Below, one piece after another: positions 3,001 through 54,734 of a DNA stretch of 64,000 bases. The notes beneath the pieces were generated by a model, which was not told the origin of the DNA, searched no databases, and worked only from the letters and a program-made list of their open reading frames with translations. The stretch covers positions 1-64,000 of the forward strand of contig NW_021833293.1 in assembly GCF_006345805.1 (NCBI RefSeq), given 5' to 3'. Every line of letters starts with the position of its first letter. Within the stretch, counting starts at the first letter, position 1. This stretch comes from Octopus sinensis (lineage: Eukaryota). A program made the translations under genes and the position numbers.

Positions 3001-6000
3001 TATATTTACAGTTACATATAGAAAGCGAGGGGTAAACTGTATATATTTACAGTTACATATAGAAAGCAAGGGGTAAACTGTATATATTTACAGTTACATA
3101 TAGAAAGCGAGGGGTAAATTGTATATATTTACAGTTACATATAGAAAGCAAGGGGTAAACTGAATATATTTACAGTTACATATAGACAGCGAGGGGTAAA
3201 CTGTATATATTTACAGTTACGTATAGAAAGCGAGGGGTAAACTGTATATATTTACAGTTACATATAGAAAGCGAGGGGTAAACTGTATATATTTACAGTT
3301 ACATATAGACAGCGAGGGGTAAACTGTATATATTTACAGTTACATATAGAAAGCGAGCGGTAAACTGTATATATTTACAGTTACATATAGAAAGCAAGGG
3401 GTAAACTGTATATATTTACAGTTACATATAGAAAGCAAGGGGTAAACTGTATATATTTACAGTTACGTATAGAAAGCGAGGGGTAAACTGTATATATTTA
3501 CAGTTACATATAGAAAGCGAGGGGTAAACTGTATATATTTACAGTTACATATAGAAACAAGGGGGTAAACTGTATATATTACAGTTACATATAGACAGCG
3601 AGGGGTAAACTGTATATATTTACAGTTACGTATAGAAAGCAGAGGGGTAAACTGTATATATTTACAGTTACATATAGAAAGCGAGGGGTAAACTGTATAT
3701 ATTACAGTTACATATAGAAAGCGAGCGGTGTATTAAACTGTATATATTCACAGTAATATAGAAAGCAATAGGGTAAGTAAGGTATAAACTGTATATATTT
3801 ACAGTTACATATAGAAAGCAAGGGGTAAATTGTATATATTTACAGTTACGTATAGAAAGCGAGGGGTAAACTGTATATATTTACAGTTACATATAGAAAG
3901 CGAGGGGTAAATTGGATACATTTACAGTTACATATAGAAAACAAGGGGTAAACTGTATATATATACAGTTACATATAGACAGCGAGGGGTAAACTGTATA
4001 TATTTACAGTTACGTATAGAAAGCGAGGCGTAAACTGTATATATTTACAGTTACATATAGACAGCGAGGGGTAAACTGTATATATTTACAGTTACATATA
4101 GAAAGCAAGGGGTAAACTGTATATATTTACAGTTACATATAGAAAGCGAGGGGTAAACTGTATATATTTACAGTTACATATAGAAAGCGAGGGGTAAATT
4201 GTATTTATTTACAGTTACATATAGAAAGCAAGGGGTAAACTGTATATATTTACAGTTACATATAGACAGCGAGGAGTAAACTGTATATACTTACAGGTAC
4301 GTATAGAAAGCGAGGGGTAAACTGTATATATTTACAGTTACATATAGAAAGCGAGGGGTAAACTGTATATATTTACAGTTACATATAGACAGCGAGGTGT
4401 AAACTGTATATATACAGTACGTATAGAAATCAAGGGGGTAAACTGTATATATTTACAGTTACATATAGAAAGCGAGGGGGTAAATTGTATATATTTACAG
4501 TTACATATAGACAGCGAGGGGGTAAACTGTATATATTTACAGTTACGTATAGAAAGCGAGGGGTAAAGTGTATATATTTACAGTTACATATAGAAAGCAA
4601 GGGGTAAACTGTATATATTTACAGTTACATATAGACAGCTAGGGGTAAACTGTATATATTTACAGTTACATATAGAAAGCGAGGGGTAAATTGTATATAT
4701 CTACAGTTACATATAGAAAGCGAGGGGTAAATTGTATATATTTACAGTTACATATAGAAAGCGAGGCGTAAACTGTATATATTTACAGTTACATATAGAA
4801 AGCGAGGGGTAAATTGTATATATTTACAGTTACATATAGAAAGGGAGGGGTAAACTGTATATATTTACAGTTACATATAGACAGCGAGGGGTAAACTGTA
4901 TATATTTACAGTTACATATAGAAAGCGAGGGGTAAACTGTATATATTTACAGTTACATATAGACAGCGAGGGGTAACCTGTATATATTTACAGTTACGTA
5001 TAGAAAGCGAGGGGTAAACTGTATATATTTACAGTTACATATAGAAAGCGAGGGGTAAACTGTATATATTTACAGTGACATATAGACAGCGAGGGGTAAA
5101 CTGTATATATTTACAGTTACATATAGAAAGCAAGGGGTAAACTGTATATATTTACAGTTACATATAGAAAGCGAGGGGTAAACTGTATATATTTACAGTT
5201 ACATATAGAAAGCAAGGGGTAAACTGTATATATTTACAGTTACATATAGAAAGCGAGGGGTAAATTGTATATATTTACAGTTACATATAGAAAGCAAGGG
5301 GTAAACTGAATATATTTACAGTTACATATAGACAGCGGGGGGTAAACTGTATATATTTACAGTTACGTATAGAAAGCGAGTAGGGGTAAACTGTATATAT
5401 TTACAGTTACATATAGAAAGCGAGGGGTAAACTGTATATATTTACAGTTACATATAACAGCGAGGGTAAACTGTATATATTTACAGTTACATATAGAAAG
5501 CGAGCGGGTAAACTGTATATATTTACAGTTACATATAGAAAGCAAGGGGGTAACTGTAAACTGTATATTTACAGTTACATATAGAAAGCAGGGGTAAGGG
5601 TGTAAACTATATTTACAGTTACGTATAGAAAGTGAGGGGGGTAAACTGTATATATTTACAGTTACATATAAAGCGAGGGGGGTAAATTGTATACATTTAC
5701 AGTTACATATAGAAAACAAGGGGTTAACTGTATATATATACAGTTACATAGCAGCGAAGGAGGGGGGTAAACTGTATATATTTACAGTTACGTATAGAAA
5801 GCGAGGGGTAAACTGTATATATTTACAGTTACATATAGAAAGCGAGGGGTAAACTGTATATATTTACAGTTACATATAGAAAGCAAGGGGTAAACTGTAT
5901 ATATTTACAGTTACATATAGAAAGCGAGGGGTAAACTGTATATATTTACAGTTACATATAGAAAGCGAGGGGTAAATTGTATATATTTACAGTTACATAT

Positions 6001-9000
6001 AGAAAGCAAGGGGTAAACTGTATATATTTACAGTTACATATAGACAGCGAGGGGTAAACTGTATATACTTACAGGTACGTATAGAAAGTGAGGGGTAAAC
6101 TGTATATATTTACAGTTACATATAGAAAGCGAGGGGTAAATTGTATATATTTACAGTTACATATAGACAGCGAGGGGTAAATTGTATAGATTTACAGTTA
6201 CATATAGACAGCGAGGGGTAAAGTGTATATATTTACAGTTACATATAGAAAGCAAGGGTTAAACTGTATATATTTACAGTTACATATAGACAGCGAGGGG
6301 TAAACTGTATATATTTACAGTTACATATAGACAGCGAGGAGTAAACTGTATATATTTACAGTTACATATAGAAAGCAAGGGGTAAACTGTATATATTTAC
6401 AGTTACATATAGAAAGCGGGGTTAAACTGTATAATTTACAGTTACATATAAAAAGCAAGGGGTAAACTGTATATATTTACAGTTACATATAGACAGCGAG
6501 TAGTACTGTATATATTTACATTTACGTATAGAAAGCGAGGGGTAAACTGTATATATTTACAGTTACATATAGAAAGCGAGGGGTAAACTGTATATATTTA
6601 CAGTTACATATAGACAGCGAGGGGTAAACTGTATATATTTACAGTTACATATAGAAGCGAGCGGTAAACTGTATATATTTACAGTTACATATAGAAGCGA
6701 GGGGTAAACTGTATATATTTACATTACATATAGAAAGCGAGGGGTAACTGTATATATTTACAGTTACATATAGAAGCGAGGGGTAAACTGTATTATTTTC
6801 AGTTACATATAGAAAGCGAGGGGTAAATTGTATATATTACAGTTACATATAGAAAACAAGGGGTAAACTGTATATATGTACAGTTACATATAACAGCGGG
6901 GGGTAAACTGTATATATTTACAGTTACGTAGAAAGCGAGGGGTAAACTGTAATATATTTACAGTTACATATAGAAGCGAGGTGTAAACTGTATATATTTA
7001 CAGTTACATATAGACAGCGAGGGGTAAACTGTATATATTTACAGGTACATATAGAAAGCAAGGGGTAAACTGTATATATTTACAGTTACATATAGAAAGC
7101 GAGGGGTAAACTGTATATATTTACAGTTACATATATACAGCGAGGGGTAAACTGTATATATTTACAGTTACATATAGAAAGCAAGGGGTAAACTGTATAT
7201 AGTTACAGTTACACATAGAAAGCAAGTGGTAAACTGTATATATTTACAGTTACATATAGAAAGCGACGGGTAAATTGTATATATTTACAGTTACATATAG
7301 AAAGCAAGGGGTAAACTGTATATATTTACAGTTATATATAGACAGCGAGGGGTATACTGTATATATTTACAGGTACGTATAGAAAGCGAGGGGTAAACTG
7401 TATATATTTACAGTTACATATAGAAAGCGATGGGTAAACTGTATATATTTACAGTTACATATAGACAGCGAGGTGTAAACTGTATATATTTACAGTTACG
7501 TATAGAAATCAAGGGGTAAACTGTATATATTTACAGTTACATATAGAAAGCAAGGGATAAACTGTATATATTTACAGTTACATATAGACAGCGAGGGGTA
7601 AACTGTATATATTTACAGTTACATATAGACAGCGAGTGGTAAACTGTATATATTTACAGTTACGTATAGAAAGCGAGGGGTAAACTGTATATATTTACAG
7701 TTACATATAGAAAGCGAGGGGTAAACTGTATATATTTACAGTGACATATAGACAGCGAAGGGTAAACTGTATATATTTACAGTTACATATAGAAAGCAAG
7801 GGGTAAACTGTATATATTTACAGTTACATATAGACAGCGAGGGGTAAACTGTATATATTTACAGTTACGTATAGAAAGCGAGGGGTAAACTGTATATATT
7901 TACAGTTACATATAGAAAGCGAGGGGTAAATTGTATATATTTACAGTTACATATAGAAAGCAAGGGGTAAACTGTATATATTTACAGTTACATATAGACA
8001 GCGATGGGTAAACTGTATATATTTACAGTTACGTATAGAAAGCGAGGGGTAAACTGTATATTTTCAGTTACATATAGAAAGCGAGGGGTAAACTGTATAT
8101 ATTTACAGTTACATATAGACAGCGAGGGGTAAACTGTATATATTTACAGTTACGTATAGAAAGCAAGGGGTAAACTGTATATATTTACAGTTACATATAG
8201 AAAGCGAGGGGTAAACTGTATATATTTACAGTTACATATAGAAAGCGAGGGGTAAATTGTATATATTTACAGTTACATATAGAAAGCAAGGGGTAAACTG
8301 TATATATTTACAGTTACATATAGACAGCGAGGGGTAAACTGTATATATTTACAGTTACATATAGAAAGCGAGGGGTAAACTGTATATATTTACAGTTACA
8401 TATAGAAAGCGAGGGGTAAACTGTATATATTTACAGTTACATATAGACAGCGAGGGGTAAACTGTATATATTTACAGTTACGTATAGAAAGCAAGGGGTA
8501 AACTGTATATATTTACAGTTACATATAGAAAGCAAGGGGTAAACTGTATATATTTACAGTTACATATAGACAGCGAGGGGTAAACTGTATATATTTACAG
8601 TTACATATAGAAAGCAAGGGGTAAACTGTATATATTTACAGTTACGTATAGACAGTTAGGGGTAAACTGTATATATTTACAGTTACATATAGAAAGCATG
8701 GGGTAAACTGTATATATTTACAGTTACGTATAGAAAGCAAGGGGTAAACTGTATATATTTACAGTTACATATAGAAAGCGAGGGGTAAACTGTATATATT
8801 TACAGTTACATATAGAAAGCGAGGGGTAAATTGTATATATTTACAGTTACATATAGAAAGCGAGGGGTAAACTGTATATATTTACAGTTACATATAGAAA
8901 GCGAGGGGTAAACTGTATATATTTACTGTTACATATAGACAAAGAGGGGTAAACTGTATATATTTACAGTTACATATCGAAGCGACGGGTAAATTGTATA

Positions 9001-10759
9001 TATTTACAGTTACATATAGAAAGCAAGGGGTAAACTGTATATATTTACAGTTATATATAGACAGCGAGGGGTATACTGTATATATTTACAGGTACGTATA
9101 GAAAGCGAGGGGTAAACTGTATATATTTACAGTTACATATAGAAAGCGATGGGTAAACTGTATATATTTACAGTTACATATAGACAGCGAGGGGTAAACT
9201 GTATATATTTACAGTTACGTATAGAAATCAAGGGGTAAACTGTATATATTTACAGTTACATATAGAAAGCAAGGGATAAACTGTATATATTTACAGTTAC
9301 ATATAGACAGCGAGGGGTAAACTGTATATATTTACAGTTACATATAGACAGCGAGTGGTAAACTGTATATATTTACAGTTACGTATATAGAAGCGAGCGG
9401 GGGTAAACTGTATATATTTACAGTTACATATAGAAAGCGAGGGGTAAACTGTATATATTTACAGTGACATATAGACAGCGAAGGGTAAACTGTATATATT
9501 ACAGTTACATATAGAAAGCAAGGGGTAAACTGTATATATTTACAGTTACATATAGACAGCGAGGGGTAAACTGTATATATTTACAGTTACGTATAGAAAG
9601 CGAGGGGTAAACTGTATATATTTACAGTTACATATAGAAAGCGAGGGGTAAATTGTATATATTTACAGTTACATATAGAAAGCAAGGGGTAAACTGTATA
9701 TATTTACAGTTACATATAGACAGCGAGGGGTAAACTGTATATATTTACAGTTACGTATAGAAAGCGAGGGGTAAACTGTATATATTTACAGTTACATATA
9801 GAAAGCGAGGGGTAGGTAAATAAACGTATATATTTACAGTTACATATAGAAAGCGAGGGGTAAACTGTATATATTTACAGTTTATATAGAAAGCAAGGGG
9901 TAAACTGTATATATTTACAGTTACATATAGAAAGCGAGGGGTAAACTGTATATATTTACAGTTACATATAGAAAGCGAGGGGTAAATTGTATATATTTAC
10001 AGTTACATATAGAAAGCAAGGGGTAAACTGTATATATTTACAGTTACATATAGACAGCGAGGGGTAAACTGTATATATTTACAGTTACATATAGAAGCGA
10101 GGGGTAAACTGTATATATTTACAGTTACATATAGAAAGCGAGGGGTAAACTGTATATATTTACAGTTACATATAGACAGCGAGGGGTAAACTGTATATAT
10201 TTACAGTTACGTATAGAAAGCAAGGGGGGTAAACTGTATATATTTACAGTTACATATAGAAAGCAAGGGGTAAACTGTATATATTTACAGTTACATATAG
10301 ACAGCGAGGGGGTAAACTGTATATATTTACAGTTACATATAGAAAGCAAGGGGTAAACTGTATTATTTACAGTTACGTATAGACAGTTAGGGGTAAACTG
10401 TATATATTTACAGTTACATATAGAAAGCATGGGGTAAACTGTTATATTTTACAGTTACGTATAGAAAGCAAGGGGTAAACTGTATATATTTACAGTTACA
10501 TATAGAAAGCGAGGGGTAAACTGTATATATTTACAGTTACATATAGAAAGCGAGGGGTAAATTGTATATATTTACAGTTACATATAGAAAGCGAGGGGTA
10601 AACTGTATATATTTACAGTTACATATAGAAAGCGAGGGGTAAACTGTATATATTTACTGTTACATATAGACAAAGAGGGGTAAACTGTATATATTTACAG
10701 TTACATATCGAAAGCGACGGGTAAATTGTATATATTTACAGTTACATATAGATAGCGAG
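1..10759. repeat. 41-bp tandem satellite, ~260 copies, runs off the left edge of the window
   Basis: Monomer GAGGGGTAAACTGTATATATTTACAGTTACATATAGAAAGC (e.g. 1920-1960) repeats head-to-tail with few variant positions and ends abruptly near 10759. Confidence 0.98.
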
Positions 10760-19092: not shown

Positions 19093-19822
19093 ATTAATCA
19101 ATATCGGGTGGCAAAAAAATTCAACAGCAAAATTTAGGAACGGCCATAATAGGCCGTTCAACAACCACTAGAAATAGCAGCCAAGGCTTCAACCGCAAAA
19201 CAATATTAATTCCGTAAACCAGGAGAACATTTAAAAAACATTTACCCTGTAATACCTTATACAATGCATCGTTTCGTCTATTTTTTAATGGTAAATCAAC
19301 CTGATTCAATTAAATCAAGCTAATCTTCCATAGGCCAATAAATTCATCAGTAAGGTAAGCCAGACGGGACAGATATTTGCACGAGGCAGCACCACTACTG
19401 TCTCGGCTATATCTGACCTAAAATTTTCAAATCATCGTACTCGCGCCAAATTTATCGGCAGCAAATATAAGCTGCCGCTTCCATTTCGGAATTAAACAGA
19501 AAATTCATAATTAATCAATATAGGGTGGCAAAAAAATTCAGCAGAAATTATTTGCCACCAGCGGCCTAGTGGGAAAAAAGTAAATAGTCAGAGACCATTA
19601 ATAAATTCAACAGCAAAATTTAGGAACGGCCATAATAGGCCGTTCAACCCACTAACTATTTAAAAAATAGACGAAACGATGCATTGTATAAGGTATTACA
19701 GGGTAAATGTTTTTAAAATTTTCTCCTGGTTTACGGAATTAATATTGTTTTGCGGTTGAAGCCTTGGCTGCTATTTCTAGTGGGTTGAACGGCCTATTAT
19801 GGCCGTTCCTAAATTTTGCTGC
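19093..19822 (-). mobile_element. Non-coding hammerhead-containing element (~486-nt terminally redundant unit plus inverted fragment) in (TA)n
   Basis: TCAACAGCAAAATTTAGGAACGGCC is directly repeated at 19121 and 19607; 19659-19820 is the reverse complement of ~19125-19288; contains a hammerhead motif. Confidence 0.8.
19253..19357 (-). ncRNA. Type I hammerhead ribozyme motif (long loop II, one core-adjacent mismatch)
   Basis: Minus strand reads TACCTTA-CTGATGA-ATTTATT...AATAGAC-GAAA-CGATGCATT-GTA-TAAGGTA: 7-bp stem I, GUA triplet, near-palindromic stem III, and A10.1:C11.1 mismatch. Confidence 0.75.
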
Positions 19823-26209: not shown

Positions 26210-27657
26210 CTGTAACGATATTCTGTAACGTATTTGAAAATGAACGATATTCTTTGTGTAGATTCACTTTATTGCATCGAGTTACGTAATTAATCTTACA
26301 TTCTATGGTGATCATAGTAGGGTGCAGAATCTAAACAACTGAGAAGAAATAACACAGAGAACCATCATGATTTCCTGTGTTCTCGTTCTGAAAGTTCAAA
26401 TGATCCATCAGGCCAAACGTCGGCATTTTATTGCCAACACAGTATTACGCACCTGGAAAGATGCATCATTACTCATGTCAATGACAAGGTTGCGCTCTGA
26501 TTTTTATCCAGGCATTGCAGTCCTACCTGGGCCAGTATATCCTGTCTGCCTTTCACTCGGCTTCATGTGTTGGTAGCGCAAACCTTCAGTTTTTTCCAGC
26601 ATTAAATTGCATGACGTCTTCAGCCCACCGGTATTTCGCATTCAACACATGTTGCATGTGCGCAGCATCTCCAGGGTTCTGTATCCTCTGATAAACATTT
26701 GTATCATCTCCAGAGGTAGCAAGGGTTGATCTCTGAGCAGCTGTGTGCATGCTTAATGTGAATAGCAGTGACCCCAAGAAAGTGCCCTGTAGGACACCAC
26801 TCATCATATGCTTTTCAATGGAGGTAGTCATGATGGGTATCACCATCTGGTTTCTGTCTTTTAGAAATTCGTATAGCCACGCCACAAGCTCCCCTACTAT
26901 GCTGAGATACGAGAACCATCTGTTGGTGGAGTGGCGCCCTACCTTGCAATATACAGAAGCAGTTTCTTTGGCATACATAATGGGGCTTTATGGTTTGATT
27001 TTATTTTTAATAACCCAGTTTTCTTGTATGCTCATTCTTTTTCCTTCTTTTTTCTTTTATTTCTTTCAGTCATTTCCATGCTGGAAATCTTCCATAAATA
27101 GTTTTTTATCGAAAAAAACCGGCCCCAGCACTTATTCTTTATAAGCTAGTAATTAATCTCTTTTGTCGAACCGTTGTGTTATACAGATATAATTACACCA
27201 ACATCGGTTGTTAAGCGATAATTGGGGTACAAACACAGACACAGGTAAATACACACACACACACACACATACACGCACACGCACATACACACACACACGC
27301 GCGCACGCACACACACACACGCACACACACACACACACACGATCAAAGGCTATAGTAGAAGACACTCACCAAAGGTGCCACGCAGTGGGACTAAACCCAG
27401 GCTGGGAAGAATGCTTCTTACCACACAGCCTCACCTGCGCCTCATGGGAGCGTTTCTGCTTTTCCTCAATATCTGTAGCGTTTTTTTTATCAGGCGAGAC
27501 CTTTTTCACTGTTTTGGCGGTTTTCAATCATTGTATGTCGTCTCTTAAAAAACTTCTCACACCTTGGGAATTTTGTAGGTATTTGCTACGCTGAAGGATC
27601 ATGCAAGGCGGATTTACAACAGATCTATCATAATATTCTTCGGATTTTAATAGAGAC
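26210..27657 (-). repeat. Left arm of a ~1.43-kb near-identical inverted duplication
   Basis: Reverse complement of 29081-30509 with only a few indels or substitutions; identical peptides appear on opposite strands in the ORF track. Confidence 0.96.
26586..26930 (-). pseudogene. Decayed CR1-group reverse transcriptase fragment (left arm)
   Basis: WLYEFLKDRNQMV...SGVLQGTFLGSLLF...GDDT...W...MQFNAGK; the YADD motif is degenerate. Confidence 0.85.
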
Positions 27658-27829
27658 TAAATCCGTTTTCATAAAGTTCACTAAATCCGCGATAGCACAG
27701 TTGAAATATCGTGTGTTTTAATTGCAAAATTTTGGAAAAATGCTATCGAAAATCGAAAGAACAGTTTAATAGCATTCTGGTAACATATATGTTGGTAACA
27801 TATATAGGAAAAATATAGAGATACGTCAA

Positions 27830-28150
27830 GATGAGGAAAGTTGGAAGAATGCACCTAGAAAGTTACCCTCCCAGGTACAAATCCGGTCAAGGTTCTTTAT
27901 GGAATACTATTAGTCGCCCATGCATACCGGCCTCCCCTCTCCACGCCACCAGTGTTATCCAAGGTAAAGGGAAAGGCCTTTACAGCTTCGCACCTGTGGC
28001 ATCGCAACTCATTCTACAGCTGAGTGAACTGGAGCAACGTGAAATAAAGTGTTTTGCTCAAGAACACAACATGCAGCCCGATCCGGGATTCGAGCTCACA
28101 ACCTCACGATCGTAAGCTCGACACTCTAACCACTGAGGCATGCGCGTTCA
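27830..28150 (-). mobile_element. tRNA-derived SINE
   Basis: Minus-strand head CTCAGTGGTTAGAGTG...GAGCTCGAATCCC, then GTGTTCTTGAGCAAAACACTTTATTTCACGTTGCTCCAG; related copy at ~41575-41822. Confidence 0.8.
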
Positions 28151-29080
28151 CAGTTGTAGAATGTCTGAAATGGATTAATTTCAAATTCGTGTGTATTTTT
28201 CGTAATCATTCTATATGGCAGCTCCCGGTAGAATTGCCCTTCTACATGAGTCCCCTTTTACGATTACCTTTGATCTCTACTAAGATTAAGATTATTGTCC
28301 TCATTTACTGCGTTACTCCAATTGAGGATGCATAATTATAAATATAATTCTAAAACTTTTGTTCAAATTAGTTTTCTATCATGCCCACTTTAGGTTTAAA
28401 TTGTATACATGAAGATTATCACTGTTTCCCACAGTTCCTTCACTAAAGGTCTTAAATAGTGGGTCTGTATTTTCTTTCCTGCATCAGCATGCGAATTCGG
28501 TCTTTTTAGTAGATACGTGTAGCATAGTTTTCGAATTTAATACGCTTATGTAACATTTCACGTTGCGTAGAATTGTTTACTATATATTTAGTTTGTATGG
28601 AAATATATGGCTATCACCATTTGAAAGTCTCTTGATATATTTCATTTAATTTTGATGAGATAGAAAAGAGTTGTATGAAGTTGCATGAACCATTCATTTG
28701 ATGTTAAGGAAAACACACATATGTTTAGAGCGCGGGGAGTTAGGTAAGGAAGGATTTTCGCTTTGAATTCGATAGCTAACGACATGTTATTAGTTAAGTC
28801 GGTTTATGAAATATATTGTTCTAAGAGGAAAAGCTGAGAATACCACCTATAAGGTTATTTAGGAACTTATTGCAAGCTATGATGGGTTGGCATGATAATA
28901 CGTTTATACAAGTAGGTTATTCATTGGATATTCTGATTAATCTATGGTTGTTGTTCAAAAGTGAGTGACATAAAGAATATAAACTCAATGTAAGTTAGTC
29001 TCTGTAGATACAAAAAATAATCGCCTAAAGTGTGTCCATCGGCATTTCTTTTTTTCTTTTTTGTCTGCAGACGTCACGTC

Positions 29081-30509
29081 GTCTCTATTAAAATCCGAAG
29101 AATATTATGATAGATCTGTTGTAAATCCGCCTTGCATGATCCTTCAGCGTAGCAAATACCTACAAAATTCCCAAGGTGTGAGAAGTTTTTTAAGAGACGA
29201 CATACAATGATTGAAAACCGCCAAAACAGTGAAAAAAGGTCTCGCCTAATAAAAAAAACGCTACAGATATTGAGGAAAAGCAGAAACGCTCCCATGAGGC
29301 GCAGGTGAGGCTGTGTGGTAAGAAGCATGCTTCCCAGCCTGGGTTTAGTCCCACTGCGTGGCACCTTTGGTGAGTGTCTTCTACTATAGCCTTTGATCGT
29401 GTGTGTGTGTGTGTGTGTGCGTGTGTGTGTGTGCGTGCGCGCGTGTGTGTGTGTATGTGCGTGTGCGTGTATGTGTGTGTGTGTGTGTGTATTTACCTGT
29501 GTCTGTGTTTGTACCCCAATTATCGCTTAACAACCGATGTTGGTGTAATTATATCTGTATAACACAACGGTTCGACAAAAGAGATTAATTACTAGGCTTA
29601 TAAAGAATAAGTGCTGGGGCCGGTTTTTTTCGATAAAAAACTATTTATGGAAGATTTCCAGCATGGAAATGACTGAAAGAAATAAAAGAAAAAAAGAAGG
29701 AAAAAGAATGAGCATACAAGAAAACTGGGTTATTAAAAATATAAAATCAAACCATAAAGCCCCATTATGTATGCCAAAGAAACTGCTTCTGTATATTGCA
29801 AGGTAGGGCGCCACTCCACCAAACAGATGGTTCTCGTAATCTCAGCATAGTAGGGGAGCTTGTGGCGTGGCTATACGAATTTCTAAAAGACAGAAACCAG
29901 ATGGTGATACCCATCATGACTACCTCCATTGAAAAGCATATGATGAGTGGTGTCCTACAGGGCACTTTCTTGGGGTCACTGCTATTCACATTAAGCATGC
30001 ACACAGCTGCTCAGAGATCAACCCTTGCTACCTCTGGAGATGATACAAATGTTTATCAGAGGATACAGAACCCTGGAGATGCTGCGCACATGCAACATGT
30101 GTTGAATGCGAAATACCGGTGGGCTGAAGACGTCATGCAATTTAATGCTGGAAAAAACTGAAGGTTTGCGCTACCAACACATGAAGCCGAGTGAAAGGCA
30201 GACAGGATATACTGGCCCAGGTAGGACTGCAATGCCTGGATAAAAATCAGAGCGCAACCTTGTCATTGACATGAGTAATGATGCATCTTTCCAGGTGCGT
30301 AATACTGTGTTGGCAATAAAATGCCGACGTTTGGCCTGATGGATCATTTGAACTTTCAGAACGAGAACACAGGAAATCATGATGGTTCTCTTGTGTTATT
30401 TCTTCTCAGTTGTTTAGATTCTGCACCCTACTATGATCACCATAGAATGTAAGATTAATTACGTAACTCGATGCAATAAAGTGAATCTACACAAAGAATA
30501 TCGTTACAG
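29081..30509 (+). repeat. Right arm of the inverted duplication (contains SINE 29297-29620 and an RT relic)
   Basis: Reverse complement of 26210-27657. Confidence 0.96.
29820..30161 (+). pseudogene. Decayed CR1-group reverse transcriptase fragment (right arm)
   Basis: Same RT motifs as 26586-26930. Confidence 0.85.
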
Positions 30510-31765: not shown

Positions 31766-31928
31766 GTATATATATATATATAATATATATATATATAGAA
31801 AATAGTAAGAGTGAAAAAACTACAGAAGGCTTAAATGTTAAAAAATATATATATTTGCGTCAATATGTCTGAAGAATATTAGAAAATTCAAAAATATTTT
31901 TTTTTTCTCTTATAATGACATAATTTAA

Positions 31929-31967
31929 AAGAAAGACCGGTTTCGCGTGTAGCTTTTCAAATTTCTT
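31929..31967 (-). ncRNA. Minimal hammerhead motif (U3-A8 variant) in the Penelope 3' repeat
   Basis: Minus strand AAGAAA-T-TTGAAAA-GC TACAC GC-GAAA-CCG-GTC-TTTCTT; palindromic stem III ACCGGT; one extra nucleotide before the core; stem II only 2 bp. Confidence 0.6.
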
Positions 31968-32345
31968 GCGACGTTATGTTTATGTTGAATAGAGTTATCG
32001 TTATTTTTATGTTCAGGAGAGTTCTAAATAAGGGGAGGTAGTGAGTGATTTCTTCCGGTGTAAGGGAGATAATCGGTTAAAAAATTTTTCCTTTCCCTTG
32101 GTGTGAATTTCTCTGTATCAGTATGTTCGGATGGTTGAATCTGGGCTTGTACTTTTCAATGAAGAATGTTTCCTTGTTTAGTCTAATTTGTGTTGATGAT
32201 CCGAAAGCACATTGGTAAAATGGAAAGATTAAAAATTGTGGTAGTAGTTGCTTTGCGCATTTCTCAATGTGCTCACTAAAAGGTATCATTCTATATTCTG
32301 GGAATGCAATCTGTTGTCGATGCAGTGTGCATCTACGTCTGAGTG

Positions 32346-33160
32346 ATAAAAACATATTGAACAGCATAAACCCAAATATACAGTTCATAATGGAATACAA
32401 CCAAAAGGAGCTCCCGTTCTTGGATATACTAATTAAAAAAATTAACCTTAAAATAGAAACAGACATCTTTTACAAAGCCACAGACGCCAAACAATAACTT
32501 CTTTTTAATTCATGCCACCCAAGACACACTAAAACAAACATCCCCTTCAACCTTGCAAGAAGGATATGCACAATAGTGTCAGAACAAAATACCAAGAACT
32601 TTAGACTGCAAGAACTCAAAAACACCCTAATTGACAGACATTACCCAGCTCAACTCATAGAGGATGGGATCAGACGTGCAACAGAAATCAACATAGAATC
32701 TTTAAGAAAAGTTCAACACAACAACACACCTTCCCCGAAAATACTACCTTACATATCTACATACAACCCCAGAAACAAAGAAGCCTTCACCATCATCACC
32801 CAGAATTTACCAATACTTCATAAAGACCCCAAATTAAAGGAAATTCTAAACATACACCAAATCATTAAAAGCTACAAACAGCCTAAATCACTTAAAAAGA
32901 TTCTCACAAAAGCAAAATTGTCTTCTGAAATTACGGATGCAAAAGTTAAAAAATGTGGTAGATCGAACTGTGCAACATGTCCTAACCTGCTAGAAGGATC
33001 AGAATTCCTCTTTAAAGAGGGACAGAAATTCAAGATCAAATCTAACTTTACTCATGCCTCTGAAAACATAATTTATGTCATAAAATGTTCGGGCTGCCAC
33101 CAAGACTACGTGGGTTCCACGGGACTATCACTCAGACGTAGATACACACTGCATCGACAA
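32346..33160 (+). pseudogene. Penelope-like RT thumb plus GIY-YIG endonuclease fragment (Neptune/Naiad-like)
   Basis: LNSINPNIQFIME...LPFLDI...TDIFYKATD, in-frame stop, SCHP...IPF...R, Cys linker KCGRSNCATC, then NIIYVIKCSGCHQDYVGSTG..LRRR. Confidence 0.92.
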
Positions 33161-33340
33161 GAGAAAAAAAAATTTTTTTCTTGAATTTTCTAATATTCTT
33201 CAGACATATTGACGCAAATATATATATTTTTTAACATTTAAGCCTTCTGTAGTTTTTTCACTCTTTACTATTTTCTATATATTCACCCACGTGCTTTCAC
33301 AAACCAACTTTCTTATCTATATATATATATATATATATAT

Positions 33341-35960: not shown

Positions 35961-36938
35961 AAACACATATACACATTTTAATACACATATCCATAGAAAT
36001 ATACATGCACACATACCTAGAAACATGCCCACATAATGCCATACATATATATAGCTACACATACATACATACACACACACATACATATATGAATGTTGAA
36101 TCCAATAGCACGTGATAGCTACTAATAACCAGTTCAACAAAGAGGTAAAGAAGACCTTCAATAACCGCGATGTAACCTACCATCTCGATAATTTCACATA
36201 TAAATAACTTAACAAGCTGTAACCGACTATTCCAAAATGTCAACAAGTGTTTAAACTTCCTACACTTCTAACTGACTCTATAATATTTTATATATACATA
36301 CACCCCCACCAACAAATTCCTCACATGCACATATATATGTTATATTATAATATTATATTATATATTATATATTATTATTATCTTATATTATATATATATA
36401 TATATAAATTTATATATAGAGGGCATTATACATACATGCCAGACGGCATTATACATACATGCCAAACGCTAAGAGGGACAATCAGTCATTTCTACCAAAA
36501 ATATTACTAATCCCACCGAATGCAATTTTTCAAAGTAAGACATTTAAAATATTAGTAATATTTTTGGTAGAAATGACTGATTGTCCCTCTTAGCGTTTGG
36601 CATGTATGTATAATGCCGTCTGGCATGTATGTATAATGCCCTCTATATATAAATTAATATGTTCAATAAGAAATAATTATTTTCGAAATTTTTTCTCTTA
36701 TGAGGTTTTTACGCTATATACCTGACAATTTCTTGTTAAGTTTTCCTTATTAAGTAGTTGTCCTTAATTGCTAAATTTTTATTCCGAAAAAACTTTACCT
36801 CTCCCGAAATGCAATTCGTAAAAGTTTGCCATTTACCCGATGTAATATATGTAAACTCAACCATGTGCTTCGTTGATGTTGATCAGTTAGCTGATCGGCT
36901 TAAGCGGGGCAGGGTCGTTGTTTATTTATAATACATTC

Positions 36939-36986
36939 AGGCCTGCTGATGATTACGTAAGTATGAAATCACTGTGATACAGGTCT
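36939..36986 (+). ncRNA. Type I hammerhead ribozyme, copy 1
   Basis: AGGCCTG-CTGATGA-TTAC GTAA GTAT-GAAA-TCAC T GTGA-TA^CAGGTCT; full conserved core, predicted cleavage after 36979 (AUA); U10.1:U11.1 mismatch. Confidence 0.88.
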
Positions 36987-37413
36987 ATATTTTTAAATGT
37001 CTTACTTTGAAAAATTGCATTCGATGGGATTAGTAATATTTTTGGTAGAAATGACTGATTGTCCCTCTTAGCGTTTGGCATGTATGTATAATGCCGTCTG
37101 GCATGTTATGTATAATGCCCTCTATTATAAATTAATATGTTCAATAAGAAATAATTATTTTCGAAATTTTTTCTCTTATGAGGTTTTTACGCTATCTACT
37201 GACAATTCTTGTTAAGTTTTCCTTATTAAGTAGTTGTCCTTAATTGCTAAATTTTTATTCCGAAAAAACTTTTCCTCTCCCGAAATGCAATTCGTAAAAG
37301 TTTGCCATTTACCCGATGTAATATATGTAAACTCAACCATGTGCTTCGTTGATGTGATCAGTTAGCTGATCGGCTTAAGCGGGGCAGGGTCGTTGTTTAT
37401 TTATAATACATTC

Positions 37414-37461
37414 AGGCCTGCTGATGATTACGTAAGTATGAAATCACTGTGATACAGGTCT
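37414..37461 (+). ncRNA. Type I hammerhead ribozyme, copy 2
   Basis: Identical to copy 1, 475 nt downstream; predicted cleavage after 37454. Confidence 0.88.
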
Positions 37462-37728
37462 ATATTTTTAAATGTCTTACTTTGGAAAATTGCATTCGGT
37501 GGGATTAGTAATATTTTTGGTAGAAATGACTGATTGTCCCTCTTAGCGTTTGGCATTATGTATAATGCCGTCTGGCATGTATGTATAATGCCCTCTATAT
37601 ATAAATTAATATGTTCAATAAGAATAATTATTTTCGAAATTTTTTCTCTTATGAGGTTTTTACGCTATCTACCTGACAATTTCTTGTTAAGTTTTTGGTT
37701 TCCTCATTAAGTAGTTGTCCTTAATTGC

Positions 37729-37781
<53 letters not shown>

Positions 37782-47520: not shown

Positions 47521-49404
47521 GCATGTGTGTGTGTGTGTGTTTACTTCACCCTCCCTACACGGTTCAGTAAGAGAACTGATAGAGTAAGATATATATATAT
47601 ATATATATATATTCATGTATATTTACATAGACGCACACATACAAACACACATATGTGTGTGTGTGTGTGTGTGCATGTATACATACATACCTATATACAT
47701 ATCAATGCAATACGCTTCAGAATATTTGAAAATTTCAGCTGATAAACTTCCTTTTAGTTAAGGTTCATCATGCATATCTATTAAAATCTTAAGTGTATGT
47801 ATATGTGTATGCGTGTGTGTGTGTGTGGGGGGGTGCTAATGTGTTTGTGTGTGTGTGTGTGCGCGTGTGTGTTTTTTGTTGTTTGTGTCACGTGCATGTT
47901 TTCGTTCGTATATGCGTGAGTATGTTTGTCTATCGAATGCGATAAAGACGGTGAATGTTGTGTAGATATCTTAATAGACATAATTTAGCAAGATATATAT
48001 ACTTAAATGAATTTAAGAAAAAATTATTTAGTAAGGAAGAAGGTTGTTTCGTCAATAAATATATATATTTTTTTTAAAATCCAATTTCTTCCACATTTAA
48101 CATTAAATATTTTCTGTCTCTGTAATATAATGGAACGCAATTCTCATATGTTAGAACGCAATCAAATCCCAGTTAAGCATGAAAATGAAAATTGAAATTA
48201 CGGGAACAAAGATGTAGCACTCAAGGGGATACTTTTTCCAGTGAGGAAATATCGAGAGTAAAGTTTAATTGCGTCTTAAAAATGCAGAATATATTGATAA
48301 AGAACATTTATTAGTGTATCGTAAGTATATGGCATGTTAATGGAAGAAAACGTGCTCAGTTTCACTTGCATAACGAAGTTTTCTTATTTCTATCTATCTC
48401 TAAAATTTCTTTATTTTAAAAGCACAAGGGCTGAAATTTTCGGGAAGAGTGGTGGTCGAGTACATTGAACACAGATCACGGATAATTTTTATTTTATCGA
48501 TTTCGAATAGCTGACAAGCAAATTCAGCGTTGGCTGAATTCGAACTGAGAATGTAAACCAAGAAAAACAATGGTGCGAAGCATTTTGGCCGGTCTACAAA
48601 CAATTCACGGCGTCTTTTTGTCTTTAATAGTAATACATGAGCTATAACGTATTATTATTACTAAATCGTTAGCACGCCAAGCAAAATACTGTGTGGCATT
48701 TCGCCCATCTTCATGGTCTGATTTCAAATTTCACCGACGTTGACTGCCTTTCATCCTTCCGTAGCCGATAATATGAGTACCAGTGGAGAACTGAGTCGAT
48801 GTAATGGATGTACACCCACGATCAAAATTGCAAGCCTGGTGCCAAAGTTTGAAATCAGTAATACATTAGATATACTATATAAAATGATCATGAAATTGTT
48901 ATGTCCCGAAGAATTTAACTTACATCGGAGAAATTCGCAACACATATGACGGACTCTGTCAAGAAAGAATTATTATCAACTGATACCATTAATTCTGCTG
49001 CGACAATCGTATGACAATAAAATTATCGATGGATAAGTCTCCTGATGACAATATAAACCAGCTTTGCAACTTGAAATATCTAATGAGATGTATTGAATGC
49101 TACTTTGTCGTTAATAGGCGAAAAGATAATGGACGACTCTCTGGTCATGCAGGTTGGTTTCAAACGCCGAGCTGGACTTTGTCAAATCGTAGTGTGCACC
49201 GAGCAAAATTAAGTAGTATATATCGCGTTGACTCAATATGTGGGTCAGTTGAACATACATGTATTTTAATAGCGTATGTGTGAACACACTGACTCAAAAG
49301 GGAGATATCTAACTATATGTCTATCTATCTATCTATCACTTTTTCCCCCTCTATCTTTCTTCATCTGTGTGAGCGTGCGCGTCTATAAAGACCATCCCAA
49401 TATA

Positions 49405-49473
<69 letters not shown>

Positions 49474-49495
49474 GTGTGTGTGTGTGTGTGTGTGT

Positions 49496-49704
49496 AATGT
49501 GACCGCGTGTGTAACGTTGGCGATTTTTTTCCTCCGTCTTCCCTTCTCTGGATCTTTCCTTTTCCTATGCTTCTGACGAAAAGCTCCGCTCGAAACGTAA
49601 AACCCTCCTTCTTCCCTTCCTTCCTGACCGTCCAATAATACTATATTTGTTCCACGTCCTCGCGTTGTTGTGTTTTCTCTTTGTGTTTTCATGTTTGGAT
49701 TACT
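49496..49704 (+). mobile_element. ~210-bp Penelope pLTR-like mini-element with minimal hammerhead (49569-49603)
   Basis: GCTT-CTGACGA-A-AAGC TCC GCTC-GAAA-C-GTA-AAAC; flanked by (TG)n and (TA)n. Confidence 0.7.
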
Positions 49705-49723
49705 ATATATATATGTATATATG

Positions 49724-49778
<55 letters not shown>

Positions 49779-49913
49779 ATTTATATTATATAGAGGGTGC
49801 TACTATTCATAGATACCGCACGTTAGGAGGGACCGTTGCGGTCAAAACTACTAAAATAAACAAATTGTACCGAATGCAAAACTTCAAAGCAAGTCATTTA
49901 AAAAAAGAGTTTA

Positions 49914-49977
49914 GTTACATATCACCTGTGATTTCGCAATTAATGCAGAATATCCATTCCATGTTCATCAGTGCAAC
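49914..49977 (-). ncRNA. Type I hammerhead motif
   Basis: Minus strand GTTGCA-CTGATGA-ACA...TGC-GAAA-TCAC AG GTGA-TA-TGTAAC. Confidence 0.78.
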
Positions 49978-50313
49978 AAACTCAAGATATATAAGAAAAA
50001 ACATAACGTTACAAGCTCGATAGCCAACCGTAGAATTCGTCGTAGCATGTACGAATGTTTATCTTTACATATCTATGAAAATGGCGGGCTTATTCGCAAT
50101 GCATTTCGGTAACAAATTGCTTACTCGGAACAAAAAGTCAGTATTGAACTATTCCGGTGAAAAATATAAATTAACAATTGAGGATAAAATTGAGGATAAA
50201 ACCCCGCCATTTTCATAGATATGTAAAGGTAAACATTCGTACATTCTACGACGAATTCTACGGTTGGCTGTGGGGTTTGTAATGTTATGTTTTTTCTTAT
50301 ATGTCTTGAGTTT

Positions 50314-50377
50314 GTTGCACTGATGAGCATAGAATGCATATTCTGCATTAATTGCGAAATCACAGGTGATTTATAAC
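50314..50377 (+). ncRNA. Type I hammerhead motif
   Basis: GTTGCA-CTGATGA-GCA T AGAAT GCAT ATTCT GCATTAAT TGC-GAAA-TCAC AG GTGA-TT-TATAAC. Confidence 0.75.
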
Positions 50378-52079
50378 TAAATTCTTTTTTTAAATGACTT
50401 GCTTTGAAGTTTTGCATTCGGTACAATTTGTTTATTTTAGTAGTTTTGACCGCAAGGGTCCCTCCTAGCGTGCGGTATCTATGAATAGTAGTACCCTGTA
50501 TATAATATAAATAAATGTTTTCAAATTGGAAAGATTTACGGATTTTTTCTCTTACGAGGTTTATCACGCTAACTGCTGATAATTTCTTATAAAGATTTTA
50601 TCCTCAATTTTGAATTAATATATATATATATATATATCTTCCACCTTTGTCCATGTTTGGCTCTTTGCATTGGAAATTTCAACTGCTACTGGAGGCTTAG
50701 CGGCAACATAATGTAAAGAGAACACTGCTGTAGTGCGATACAGTTAAGTAAAGGGTACATTTCTCTATAATATGATGCAAAAACTATTTCTCTGCCTATC
50801 CATTGACTAGGGTTATAATGTAGTGAATGGGGGTGCTGAAATGCAGTGCTGTCATGAAGAGTTTCTGAGTTCAATTCCAGTCAAGGCATTTAGGTGATTC
50901 ACAAAACATGTGGAAAAGGCTAAGTCGTATACAACCGATGAAGTGAAAGCAACAGTCAAGATAAGGACACCACTCCGACTAATACGTAATACAAATTCTT
51001 CTTCTCAGAGCTATAGAACTGTATTATTGTGTTACAAGTTCAACCAGGTGAGAATAGGAGAGATGACTTAAAAATTCAGTTGAGTAAGCTTTGAATCTAA
51101 GCGATTTTTTTTACCTCAATACACACTCACACTTATCTTCCTTTCCCCCGAATGTGTTAAAATTTGGTAAGTTATTATCGTACTTACCGACTCTATTGCA
51201 CGTTAGCGTTTGAAAAATCCGGAGCCATAAAAAAATAGACAATTGATTTTACAACATTCAATTAATAAAATTACTTCATTGCTGGTTTATAGTTTTATAT
51301 TTTCTGCTAAGAGGGGTATAAAATTATAAATATGCAGTCCTTTTACCTTGGATAACTAAATATTCACCTTGGCATTTTCTTCCATTGCGTACATTGCACC
51401 TTTCAAAATGGAAATGGTAGTAAAAACGAGTACGCCTCACAATAATAATGTTAAATCTTCATGCCATCCCTTATCCCCCAGGAATTTTCAAACATGAAAA
51501 TAAATGTAAAATGAAAATAGCAATGAATCAAAGCAACAAACTTGCAGTACAAGCACGGAACTTTAACTTTGAAGTAGCATAACAAAGGATACTGCTGTAA
51601 ACAACTTAAAGGAGAAACGCAATAAGATCATTTGAAATACCGCGATCAGTAGCCACATTTCGTAACTTGCAAATACTTTGGTCTTCCACTCTGTATTATT
51701 GTCCCTATTTTCTACGCTTTCTATAACTCATCTTAACACCAATTTTTGAATGACAAACGACATTGGTTTCTTAAGCACAAAATACTAAACGGCTGCGACA
51801 GTTTCTGCTGAGGTTCCACTTTGTTTACGCCCATCATTTTGATTGGTTTATTGTTCAAATTTATTATTTGTGGTATGTGACTGGTCGGTTATTCAGATAT
51901 CCCCTCTGAAAGGTGTGATAGATTAAACCATTGGCCTCTCCAAAACAATGGAAGACGGAGACGTTCTGCTTAGATACAAAAGCGAATAACATTTACATAT
52001 AAAGACATATATACATACATACATACATACACACTACCCTAGCATGGCTGAAGTCTAATGAGTGAAACAAGTAAATGGT

Positions 52080-52958: not shown

Positions 52959-53466
52959 GAGGCGCAATGGCCCAGTGGTTAGGGAAGTGGACTGACGAGC
53001 TGGCCCATATCGATATTATAATGATAATACTTTCTACTAAAGGCACAAGGCCTGAAATGCCGGGAAGGAATTAAGTCGATCACATCGGCCCCAGTGTGTA
53101 AATGGCACTTATTTAATCAACGTCTAAGGAATGGCAGGCAAAGTCGACCTCGGCGGAATTTGAACTAAGAACAGACAAAATACCTCTAAGCATTTCGCCC
53201 GGTGCGCTAACGATTTTGCTAGTTCGCCGCATTCACATATATGTAATCATAATGACATGAATAAGACTTAAGATTTCTTTATCAATCAAGAATAGCTAAT
53301 ATAGGACAATATCGGTTCTAAGTGATATTCCTCAACGCTGACGATTTGTAGAGTCATAACATTTTTGCAATGATACTTAGCAGCTTATTGCAAAACACCC
53401 ACAGGGACAGCAATGGTTACATATTTCTTCACTTTAGAAACCTAAGAATGTCTTCAAAATTTATTG

Positions 53467-53748
53467 GAATAATGCATGCCATTATTTCGAAGCACAGACG
53501 TCTGATCATAATACATGTGTATAATCCTGTTTAAAACACAAGAGCACTCATTTATAAATATTTAACATTATTCGCAATATTATATTTTATAATTTCAATA
53601 TTTGACACTTCTTATCGTATGATTGTATTACAGCGTATTTAACGGTTCCTATATAGCATCATATATATATATATAATATGATATTAATTAGAGACAAAAC
53701 CACTATTTTTGGATTTATTCCCTAATATTTATTATTATTATATATATA

Positions 53749-53807
<59 letters not shown>

Positions 53808-54139
53808 TAAATGTATGTGTGTGTGCGTGTGTATGTGTCTAGGTATGTGTCTTGGTGCCTGCGTGAGTATGTAGGCATATAAATGATGTCATCCGAAATC
53901 ATTAGTCCGACTGGTGAATACACAACTGAATAAATTTTATATGGTAACAGAAAAATGTATATGAGTCCTTTTAATGACATATTAGTGTATATTGACGTTT
54001 GATCATATTGCAATTTCAATTATAATCTAGCCAATAATGTTAAATATTTATAAATGTGTGCTCTTGGATTTTAAACAGAATTCCACACACGTATTATGAC
54101 CAGACGTCTATGCTTCGAAAAAATAGCACGCAATATTTC
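53467..54139. repeat. Diverged ~110-bp inverted repeat pair (53467-53572 / 54033-54139), MITE-like
   Basis: TTCGAAGCACAGACGTCTGATCATAATAC...CATTTATAAATATTTAACATTATT matches the reverse complement of the right block. Confidence 0.75.
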
Positions 54140-54144
54140 AGTTA

Positions 54145-54734
54145 TTGTTAAGGAGAAGAAGAGACGAGCAAATTTCATATCAGCGCATTTTCTGGTTCTT
54201 ATTCAAATCGAGTGGTACTCATTTGTCGAAATTTTTTGATTTTTTGATCGCATGCAAATGGTTTCAGGCAGTTTTCTGACTAATTTGATGTTGTGTTGCT
54301 AGTTCTCGAGTGGTTTCGGTGTATCTTTCTCAATGACAGTCTTTGATTAAACGTCATCGATAACAGATGGGCGTCTACTACGCTCACGACCTTCAAGGCT
54401 CAGATCTCCACTGCGAAATCGTTTAAACCATATTCGAACTGGTCACTCACTGGTCATTTCCTCACCAAGGGTTTCGTTGATATCGCGAGCAGGTACAGCT
54501 GCTTTACGTCCTTTTTAGAAGTTGAATAGTAAAATTCCTAGAATATCCATTTCAGATGTTTTTAACAACGGTTGAAATATAGCAATATTAATTCATTGAT
54601 GCATTTGGGAAATCAATCTCTGTATTATTGGACAAATTCCCCCCACCCAAATATTTCAAAAAATTTTAAGCTCCGCAAAATTCCGGTACAAATTCGTCAT
54701 GGTTCAAAACGTTGCTTACTTTTTACTCAACCTG

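Follow-up and report, generated by a model that had tools for sequence, protein, structure and literature searches.

A head-to-head insertion of a hammerhead-bearing 494-nt repeat in the Octopus sinensis genome, probably a non-LTR retrozyme with Penelope-like insertion anatomy

The segment at 49.79-50.62 kb of the window (the whole 64,000-nt stretch of the contig NW_021833293.1 analysed here) consists of two arms of a 494-nt non-coding unit, designated family B, which are joined 5'-5' in a head-to-head arrangement and bordered on both sides by (TA)n. It is probably a two-arm copy, truncated at the 5' end, of a repeat of the animal non-LTR retrozyme type, and the protein of a Penelope-like element (PLE) is likely to have mobilised it in trans. 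Together with the related family A at 36.4-37.7 kb it most likely belongs to a new family within the known class of animal non-LTR retrozymes, although this A/B superfamily may have been annotated earlier. The class itself has already been described, and the notable feature of the present family is its unusually clear insertion mechanics. The mode of retrozyme insertion, and the cause of the inverted arms and one-sided tail of PLEs, are open questions in the field, and the family ties retrozymes to the PLE machinery through its insertion anatomy, in particular through a countable rule of one arm per start site.

Organisation of the family B insertion

The left arm (49789..50190, minus strand) emerges from a (TA)n target microsatellite (49704..49792, unstranded) and comprises approximately 0.85 of a unit, running from unit position 480 through 494 and 1 to ~395. 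Its 3' end lies at the site S1, with CCCTC directly before TATA, and it carries alleles of the B2 subfamily at unit positions 155-216 and of the B1 subfamily at 283-384. The right arm (50200..50621, plus strand) belongs to subfamily B1 and extends from unit position 85 through 494 to 12, running past S1 and stopping at a second site, S2, at the right-flank (TA)n target microsatellite (50616..50637, unstranded). Within this arm, the 110-nt S1-S2 'tail' (50499..50609, plus strand) holds a motif kept across the subfamilies. The two arms are inverted with respect to each other, show 94% identity (286/305) and together span one unit when mapped on the natural 494-nt unit from the locus L005. Their 5'-5' junction (50176..50201, unstranded) contains a 12-bp tandem duplication within which lies the left-arm S2 motif.

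Each arm carries a type I hammerhead motif. That of the left arm (49914..49977, minus strand; predicted cut between 49920 and 49919) is composed of stem I GTTGCA/TGTAAC, CTGATGA, an extended stem II, GAAA and ATCAC-AG-GTGAT, with H17=A, while that of the right arm (50314..50377, plus strand; predicted cut after 50371) has TATAAC, giving a C.A mismatch in stem I, and H17=T, both of which are near-private, each being common to only one other insertion. With one hammerhead per strand and no full unit in either arm, the window copy could not release a monomer and was likely dead on arrival.

An earlier note on this DNA had perceived termini common to the insertions of both families, and these are present: the left start TATAGAGGG is found at 36415 and 49789, its two occurrences in the 64-kb window, and the right ends CCTCAATT at 50602 and CCTTAATT at 37719 are each followed by (TA)n. 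The left half was also correctly taken to begin where the right half ends, as the sense left arm starts GTTTTATCCTCAATT, with the 12-bp duplication, and the proposed ~494-nt template unit agrees with the natural tandem copies of family B, which have periods of 494 (L005) and 495 nt (C9). The circularity read into this overlap is plausible but is not implied by it, because the same overlap would be expected of a tandem transcript that had not been cleaved.

Family A and the wider superfamily

Family A is present in the window as a short inverted arm (36415..36549, minus strand) that stops at S1 and a tandem arm (36551..37731, plus strand) of 2.5 units of 475 nt, with hammerhead cores at 36946 and 37421, that stops at S2 before (TA)n. 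The sequence blocks which had been aligned between the two families are indeed homologous, with an identity of 0.61-0.64 (~62%) and a local score of 289 for the right arm of B against the A array, compared to 180 +/- 8 (maximum 209) for 100 dinucleotide shuffles.

The genome searched comprises 2.72 Gb in 13,516 contigs. A hammerhead pattern in which the core and stem III were fixed and stems I and II left free has 4,583 matches genome-wide (2,280 + 2,303), and the tail motif has 4,220 (2,165 + 2,055), with none for the reversed control in either case. Searches of the genome with the units themselves returned 2,134 first-look candidates for B (40 scored) and 1,099 for A (39 scored), the loci from these searches being skewed to S2 ends and those picked by the pattern to intact hammerheads. 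At least seven subfamilies (A, B, D, E, F, G and H, labels of this analysis) occur among the 100 hammerhead matches listed, across which the hammerhead-to-hammerhead periods range from 469 to 495 nt, with one hammerhead per unit in the arrays. The copies are scattered over many contigs and their arms reach 6,898 nt, or ~14.5 units; this longest arm shows only four mismatches over 5,844 unit-to-unit positions.

Open reading frames in the units are short, with sense ATG ORFs of at most 41 aa in E, none of 40 aa or more inside the B unit, and antisense ORFs of up to 116 aa. The two frames in the window have no Pfam match above cut-off, and an ORF with reverse transcriptase (RT) and GIY-YIG domains is absent from the A, B and E units. 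Contigs assembled from independent runs contain both element sequence and opposite-strand joints. Contigs of the runs guessed as RNA span the element and not its flank, but most of the flank is also missing from the DNA-like run X16, so that this contrast is no evidence of transcription. Strand, ends and circles are not readable from such contigs.

Several further features were observed at these loci and in the window. In L095 and L035 entire two-arm insertions have been tandemly duplicated along with their (TA)n flanks. A canonical hammerhead which is related but has another, more GC-rich stem I occurs at L151:3054-3120 (minus strand) and G000 C1:34282568, without homology to the retrozyme units. 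In L168 a 473-aa frame (2700-4121, minus strand) with a weak zinc-knuckle match (E 0.057) lies between retrozyme arms and is either a nested LINE ORF1-like insertion or a captured RNA. The window begins with a 41-bp satellite (1-10759, 262 copies) and holds more long inverted repeats at 26243-30505, 19165-19783 and 53451-54154, of which the arms at 26.2-30.5 kb are mostly 100% complementary, contain LINE-like RT remnants and may be an assembly or fold-back artefact.

Hammerhead structure and covariation

Covariation was evaluated on 23 hand-picked distinct hammerheads, using pair counts that ignore phylogeny. The named type I structure pairs in 94% of 415 cells, with two-sided changes in 10 of the 20 named pairs (as high in 7/500 shuffles) and a covariation score of 0.375, against 0.172 for shuffled and at most 0.045 for slid controls. 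Compensated pairs are found at five of the six positions of stem I and at all three of basal stem II, and RNAalifold recovers the hammerhead unaided. The data thus support selection on the structure, as had been proposed. The covariation claimed for the ribozyme stems applies to stems I and II; stem III is without covariation, only its 1-2 nt loop varying, and its constancy is partly built into the search pattern. Both stem I sequences that had been contrasted exist, GTTGCA/TGTAAC in the left arm of B and AGGCCTG/CAGGTCT in A, but the mismatched right arm does not conform. Similarly, the letters of the AGAAT/ATTCT hairpin thought to expand stem II are present but were rejected as a helix, as they pair in 65% of cells with no compensatory changes. 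An inner helix AATGCA/TGCATT is supported instead, pairing in 92.5% with two compensated pairs and reading GACGTA/TACGTT in subfamily F.

When applied to 18 longer sequences, RNAalifold additionally predicts a long-range stem that encloses the ribozyme and a hairpin preceding S1; compensation is seen in 19 of 54 pairs. Circular folding of the natural units gave z-scores of -8.7 (A), -3.3 (B) and -6.3 (E) in sense, and of -4.6, +0.4 and -4.3 in antisense, on 25 shuffles each. A predicted AUA cleavage site is found in 60 of 65 long-stem hammerheads. No Rfam family reached gathering score anywhere in the window, and no Rfam hammerhead family was found at E<=5 in 49400-50700, where only hairpin and microsatellite miRNA noise was returned; the ribozyme call rests, therefore, on the core motif and covariation. 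In single-sequence MFE folds the hammerhead is not formed and the core is mispaired (z -0.1 to -1.2). The near-palindromic helix III suggests that cleavage could take place in dimers (compare PMC4209133).

Insertion ends and target sites

The insertion ends are fixed, and this is strongly supported. Among the sampled loci, after overlaps were merged, 184 of the 196 uncut arm 3' ends fall at one of two sites (S1, 93; S2, 91), as classified with wide windows of ~45-57 nt of 480. The S1 and S2 anchors are 109-134 nt apart, and the exact join to (TA)n is scattered ~0-17 nt beyond the anchor. (TA)4 occurs within 50 nt at 180 of these 184 ends, against a background of 7.9%. Of 69 head-to-head clusters, 62 combine S1 with S2, none S1 with S1 or S2 with S2, four S2 with another end, and three are cut by the locus edge. 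All two-arm insertions in which both ends could be classified as S1 or S2 use one of each (62/62), a set which includes the local duplicate L095 and the doubtful S2 calls L107 and L019. The subset selected by the hammerhead pattern gives S1+S2 in 26 of 28 and S2/other in two, while in 15 further loci found by the tail motif and read by eye the two-arm insertions are S1+S2 in 11/11, one of which extends a copy earlier counted as single-armed.

Mapping of many copies therefore bears out the defined, non-random termini that had been predicted, in the form of two alternative sites, one per arm. As to whether these are priming or termination points, both of which had been offered, the in vitro work on the Poseidon PLE PAc (PMC11167929), whose protein nicks and extends both strands and where two internal RT starts define the tail, points to S1 and S2 as probable RT priming sites and not termination points.

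The 5' ends, by contrast with these fixed 3' ends, are scattered round the unit. None of 75 B arms (expected 1.7) and one of 78 A arms (expected 1.8) begins within 5 nt of the predicted cut, which is crossed intact by 62/75 B and 66/79 A arms, partly through selection bias. A cleaved linear monomer was rejected as the template, since the 5' ends are not at the cut.

Templates of the two arms

The arms of one insertion usually derive from one template. Within an insertion they differ by 0.9% in A (32 insertions) and 3.0% in B (21), similar to the 0.8% and 3.3% between successive units, while insertions differ from each other by 2.3% (A) and 7.6% (B). The arm difference lies below the between-locus median in 30/32 A, 21/21 B and 6/6 E insertions, and both arms of young arrays carry common locus-specific variants.

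The window copy, with arms differing by 5.8%, falls barely under its 5.9%. At unit positions 155-216 its left arm has the 7-site haplotype of L019, and at 283-384 it shows the common alleles that the right arm carries over its whole length. As 6 of 13 subfamily-diagnostic sites distinguish its two arms, it likely made use of a second template or a template switch; among 20 other B insertions with shared diagnostic sites, 16 differ at none and four at 1-2. Later conversion or an assembly error may also be the source of this discordance. A consensus of the two halves, which had been suggested for a cleavage test, would make a poor construct because the halves differ at these sites. The interval of the left-arm switch (unit 216-283) includes the predicted cut at 256. 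A general origin of mosaics by template jumping or hetero-ligation at this cut is not supported: 19 intervals in a set of 66 B arms looked mosaic, of which 6 contain the cut, against 4.3 expected, and many of the intervals are coverage-penalty artefacts.

Penelope-like elements in the genome

A truncated insertion of a PLE, designated PLE-C, occurs in the window at 31800..33320 (unstranded) and also consists of two 5'-truncated arms with S1/S2 ends of their own in (TA)n, with a CxxC and GIY-YIG-like frame at 32498-33184. This family is abundant and young (150/150 scored matches at 95-100%), and its 811-aa open frames match RVT_1 above cut-off (E 2e-7) and GIY-YIG weakly (E 0.07); a PDB search with the PLE-C frame gave no matches. 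PLE-C copies end at two sites ~40 nt apart in (TA)n, and all seven two-arm copies use one site per arm, six being S1+S2 and one, scored 'other', reading as S2 before (CTAT)n. In L085 and L087, tandem copies spaced ~4 kb apart continue from S2 into the following ORF, and no hammerhead is found in the 3' repeat. Further GIY-YIG PLE-like families are encoded in the genome. The insertion anatomy of families A and B points to a PLE helper, and PLE-C is a candidate for the type of mobiliser involved.

PLE-C and the other sampled PLEs were rejected as parents of the retrozymes. Retrozyme profiles gave nothing better than E=2.2 against 60 PLE loci, a partial sample of several families, and nhmmer did not reproduce the weak AT-rich BLAST matches (E 0.001-0.07) between the S1 region of A and one PLE family. 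No PLE-C-like ORF was detected by tblastn in the 15 tail-motif loci. A PLE fragment abutting a retrozyme 5' end in L236 was likewise discarded as proof of co-packaging; it is inverted, and a local template is likely because it is 98.7% identical to a copy ~1.2 kb away.

Minimal hammerhead-like motifs of the PLE type were also observed. One, CTGACGA...GAAACGTAA at 49573, is located in a pyrimidine-rich segment (49520-49700, plus strand) which ends in the left (TA)n of B, resembles by eye the 3' repeat of a GIY-YIG remnant in L157 and is likely an older pLTR remnant. Another PLE family, in L174, has such a motif in its 3' region, ~640 nt beyond a GIY-YIG match.

Proposed mechanism and alternatives

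In the proposed mechanism, a tandem array would be transcribed and its hammerheads would cut out monomers, which a host ligase could then close into circles. The RNA would be bound in the region of the S1-S2 tail by a PLE RT/GIY-YIG dimer, which would nick both strands of a (TA)n tract; extension would then start at S1 for one DNA end and at S2 for its counterpart. The two cDNAs would vary in length, reaching ~14.5 units at most, before 5'-5' joining produced the head-to-head arrangement. A circular template is somewhat favoured over a multimer, mainly because linear copying cannot lengthen arrays. A more specific version, put forward tentatively, is that a viroid-like circular RNA not descended from its helper mimics the PLE binding site in structure, that a hammerhead-less PLE dimer holds one such circle at S1 and S2, and that both broken DNA ends roll round this same circle. 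If true, it would account for the one-of-each rule, for the identity of the arms of young arrays and for equal 5' ends being more frequent than expected; the circle would also represent a 480-nt natural substrate for dissecting PLE integration.

The element may also depend on PLEs but be copied from an uncleaved linear tandem transcript, with the hammerhead only processing or regulating the RNA and long arrays arising by unequal exchange; this alternative is a possible one of some weight, if short of the favoured reading. The intact cut sites and scattered 5' ends fit it equally well, no RNA circle was seen in the contigs of runs guessed as RNA, and in the PAc system (PMC11167929) uncleaved RNA is the dominant substrate and hammerhead mutants insert normally in vitro, yet 5'-truncated linear copying only shortens arrays, which sits poorly with the near-identical units of the 6,898-nt arm. 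The locus-specific variants common to the two arms of young arrays, and the compensation that keeps the stems across units ~62% identical, also speak against it.

It is improbable that the units are detached pseudo-LTRs of an unsampled extant hammerhead-bearing PLE, which would make them ordinary truncated ends of PLEs and not a non-autonomous family in its own right. Their end structure is that of PLEs and, in a preprint (Li, Clavereau and Pollet; bioRxiv 10.64898/2026.07.22.740005), 24 of 57 Xenopus retrozyme families are homologous to known TEs, nearly all of them PLEs. The units are, however, arranged head-to-tail without any ORF between them, and are without homology to the 60 PLE loci. 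Furthermore, tblastn with PLE-C against retrozyme loci, a small sample among the 100 matches listed of ~4,500, revealed no arm that a PLE ORF enters in sense, the sole abutting fragment being the inverted one in L236.

Slightly less credible still is the formation of the two arms by L1-style twin priming or fold-back of one cDNA, in place of two RNA-primed syntheses. The 5' ends lie within 5 nt of each other in 8 of 67 two-arm pairs, where 1.5 are expected (P ~2e-4), and fold-back may account for a minority of insertions. As a general rule it is excluded by the window copy and L011, in which neither arm is nested in the other; both arms often cross several S1/S2 sites before stopping, and where one arm begins at its 5' end bears no relation to the priming site of its partner. 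The AT-rich sequence, the lack of an Rfam match and the weak single-sequence folding would suit a satellite DNA in which a hammerhead-like motif arose by chance, or an artefact of assembly, but this reading is largely refuted, and extremely unlikely, given the dispersed fixed-end copies, the compensatory changes, the empty control searches and the opposite-strand joints in contigs of independent runs.

The preferred reading, mobilisation of a retrozyme by PLE protein, is open to experiment: with young PLE copies with 811-aa frames in the same genome, circle versus multimer, one versus two templates and the identity of the helper are all testable.

Comparison with known retrozymes and Penelope-like elements

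Retrozymes of corals, mussels and the axolotl, for which circular RNAs have been shown (Cervera and de la Pena 2020, PMC7229834), have RNAs of 170-400 nt and units of 150-450 bp and include the satellite 2 of axolotl and newt. The Octopus families resemble them in their non-coding low-GC tandem units with one type I hammerhead each and in their thousands of dispersed dimers to multimers, with no LTR, PBS or PPT seen. They differ in their units of 469-495 nt, which lie inside the 51-972 bp given in the preprint, and in a helix III of 4-5 bp that is near-palindromic and a stem II that is extended in B, their self-cleavage and circles being predicted. The main text of that paper mentions neither head-to-head arms nor a pair of fixed ends nor (TA)n targeting.

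The preprint proposes that retrozymes are non-autonomous PLE derivatives, and reports that eight of nine tested Xenopus dimers were without cleavage. As there, the present families co-occur with abundant PLEs, for which a mobilising role is proposed; the link in the preprint consists of co-occurrence and pLTR homology, whereas here it consists of insertion anatomy, with no pLTR homology in the 60 loci. The non-autonomous PLEs of Chlamys such as MRC1 (PMC8557442) similarly form multicopy head-to-tail insertions, but share 3' sequence with autonomous families, in a clade without canonical hammerheads; the present families have the hammerhead, and no shared sequence was detected.

From EN+ PLEs the retrozyme differs in having no ORF, in a tail of 110-134 nt instead of 30-40 nt, and in a canonical rather than a minimal hammerhead (PMC4209133). 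S1 has several bases of TA-like microhomology, unlike the starts of PAc, which are not homologous to the target (PMC11167929). PLE insertions with an inverted 5'-truncated copy, a tail at one end and a (TA)n bias have been described in PMC8557442, and the EN+ PLEs (PMC8557442, PMC11167929 and PMC4209133) are like the present families in their 5' truncation, partial tandems, inverted 5'-truncated copy, one-end tail, two internal RT start sites and AT-rich or (TA)n targets.
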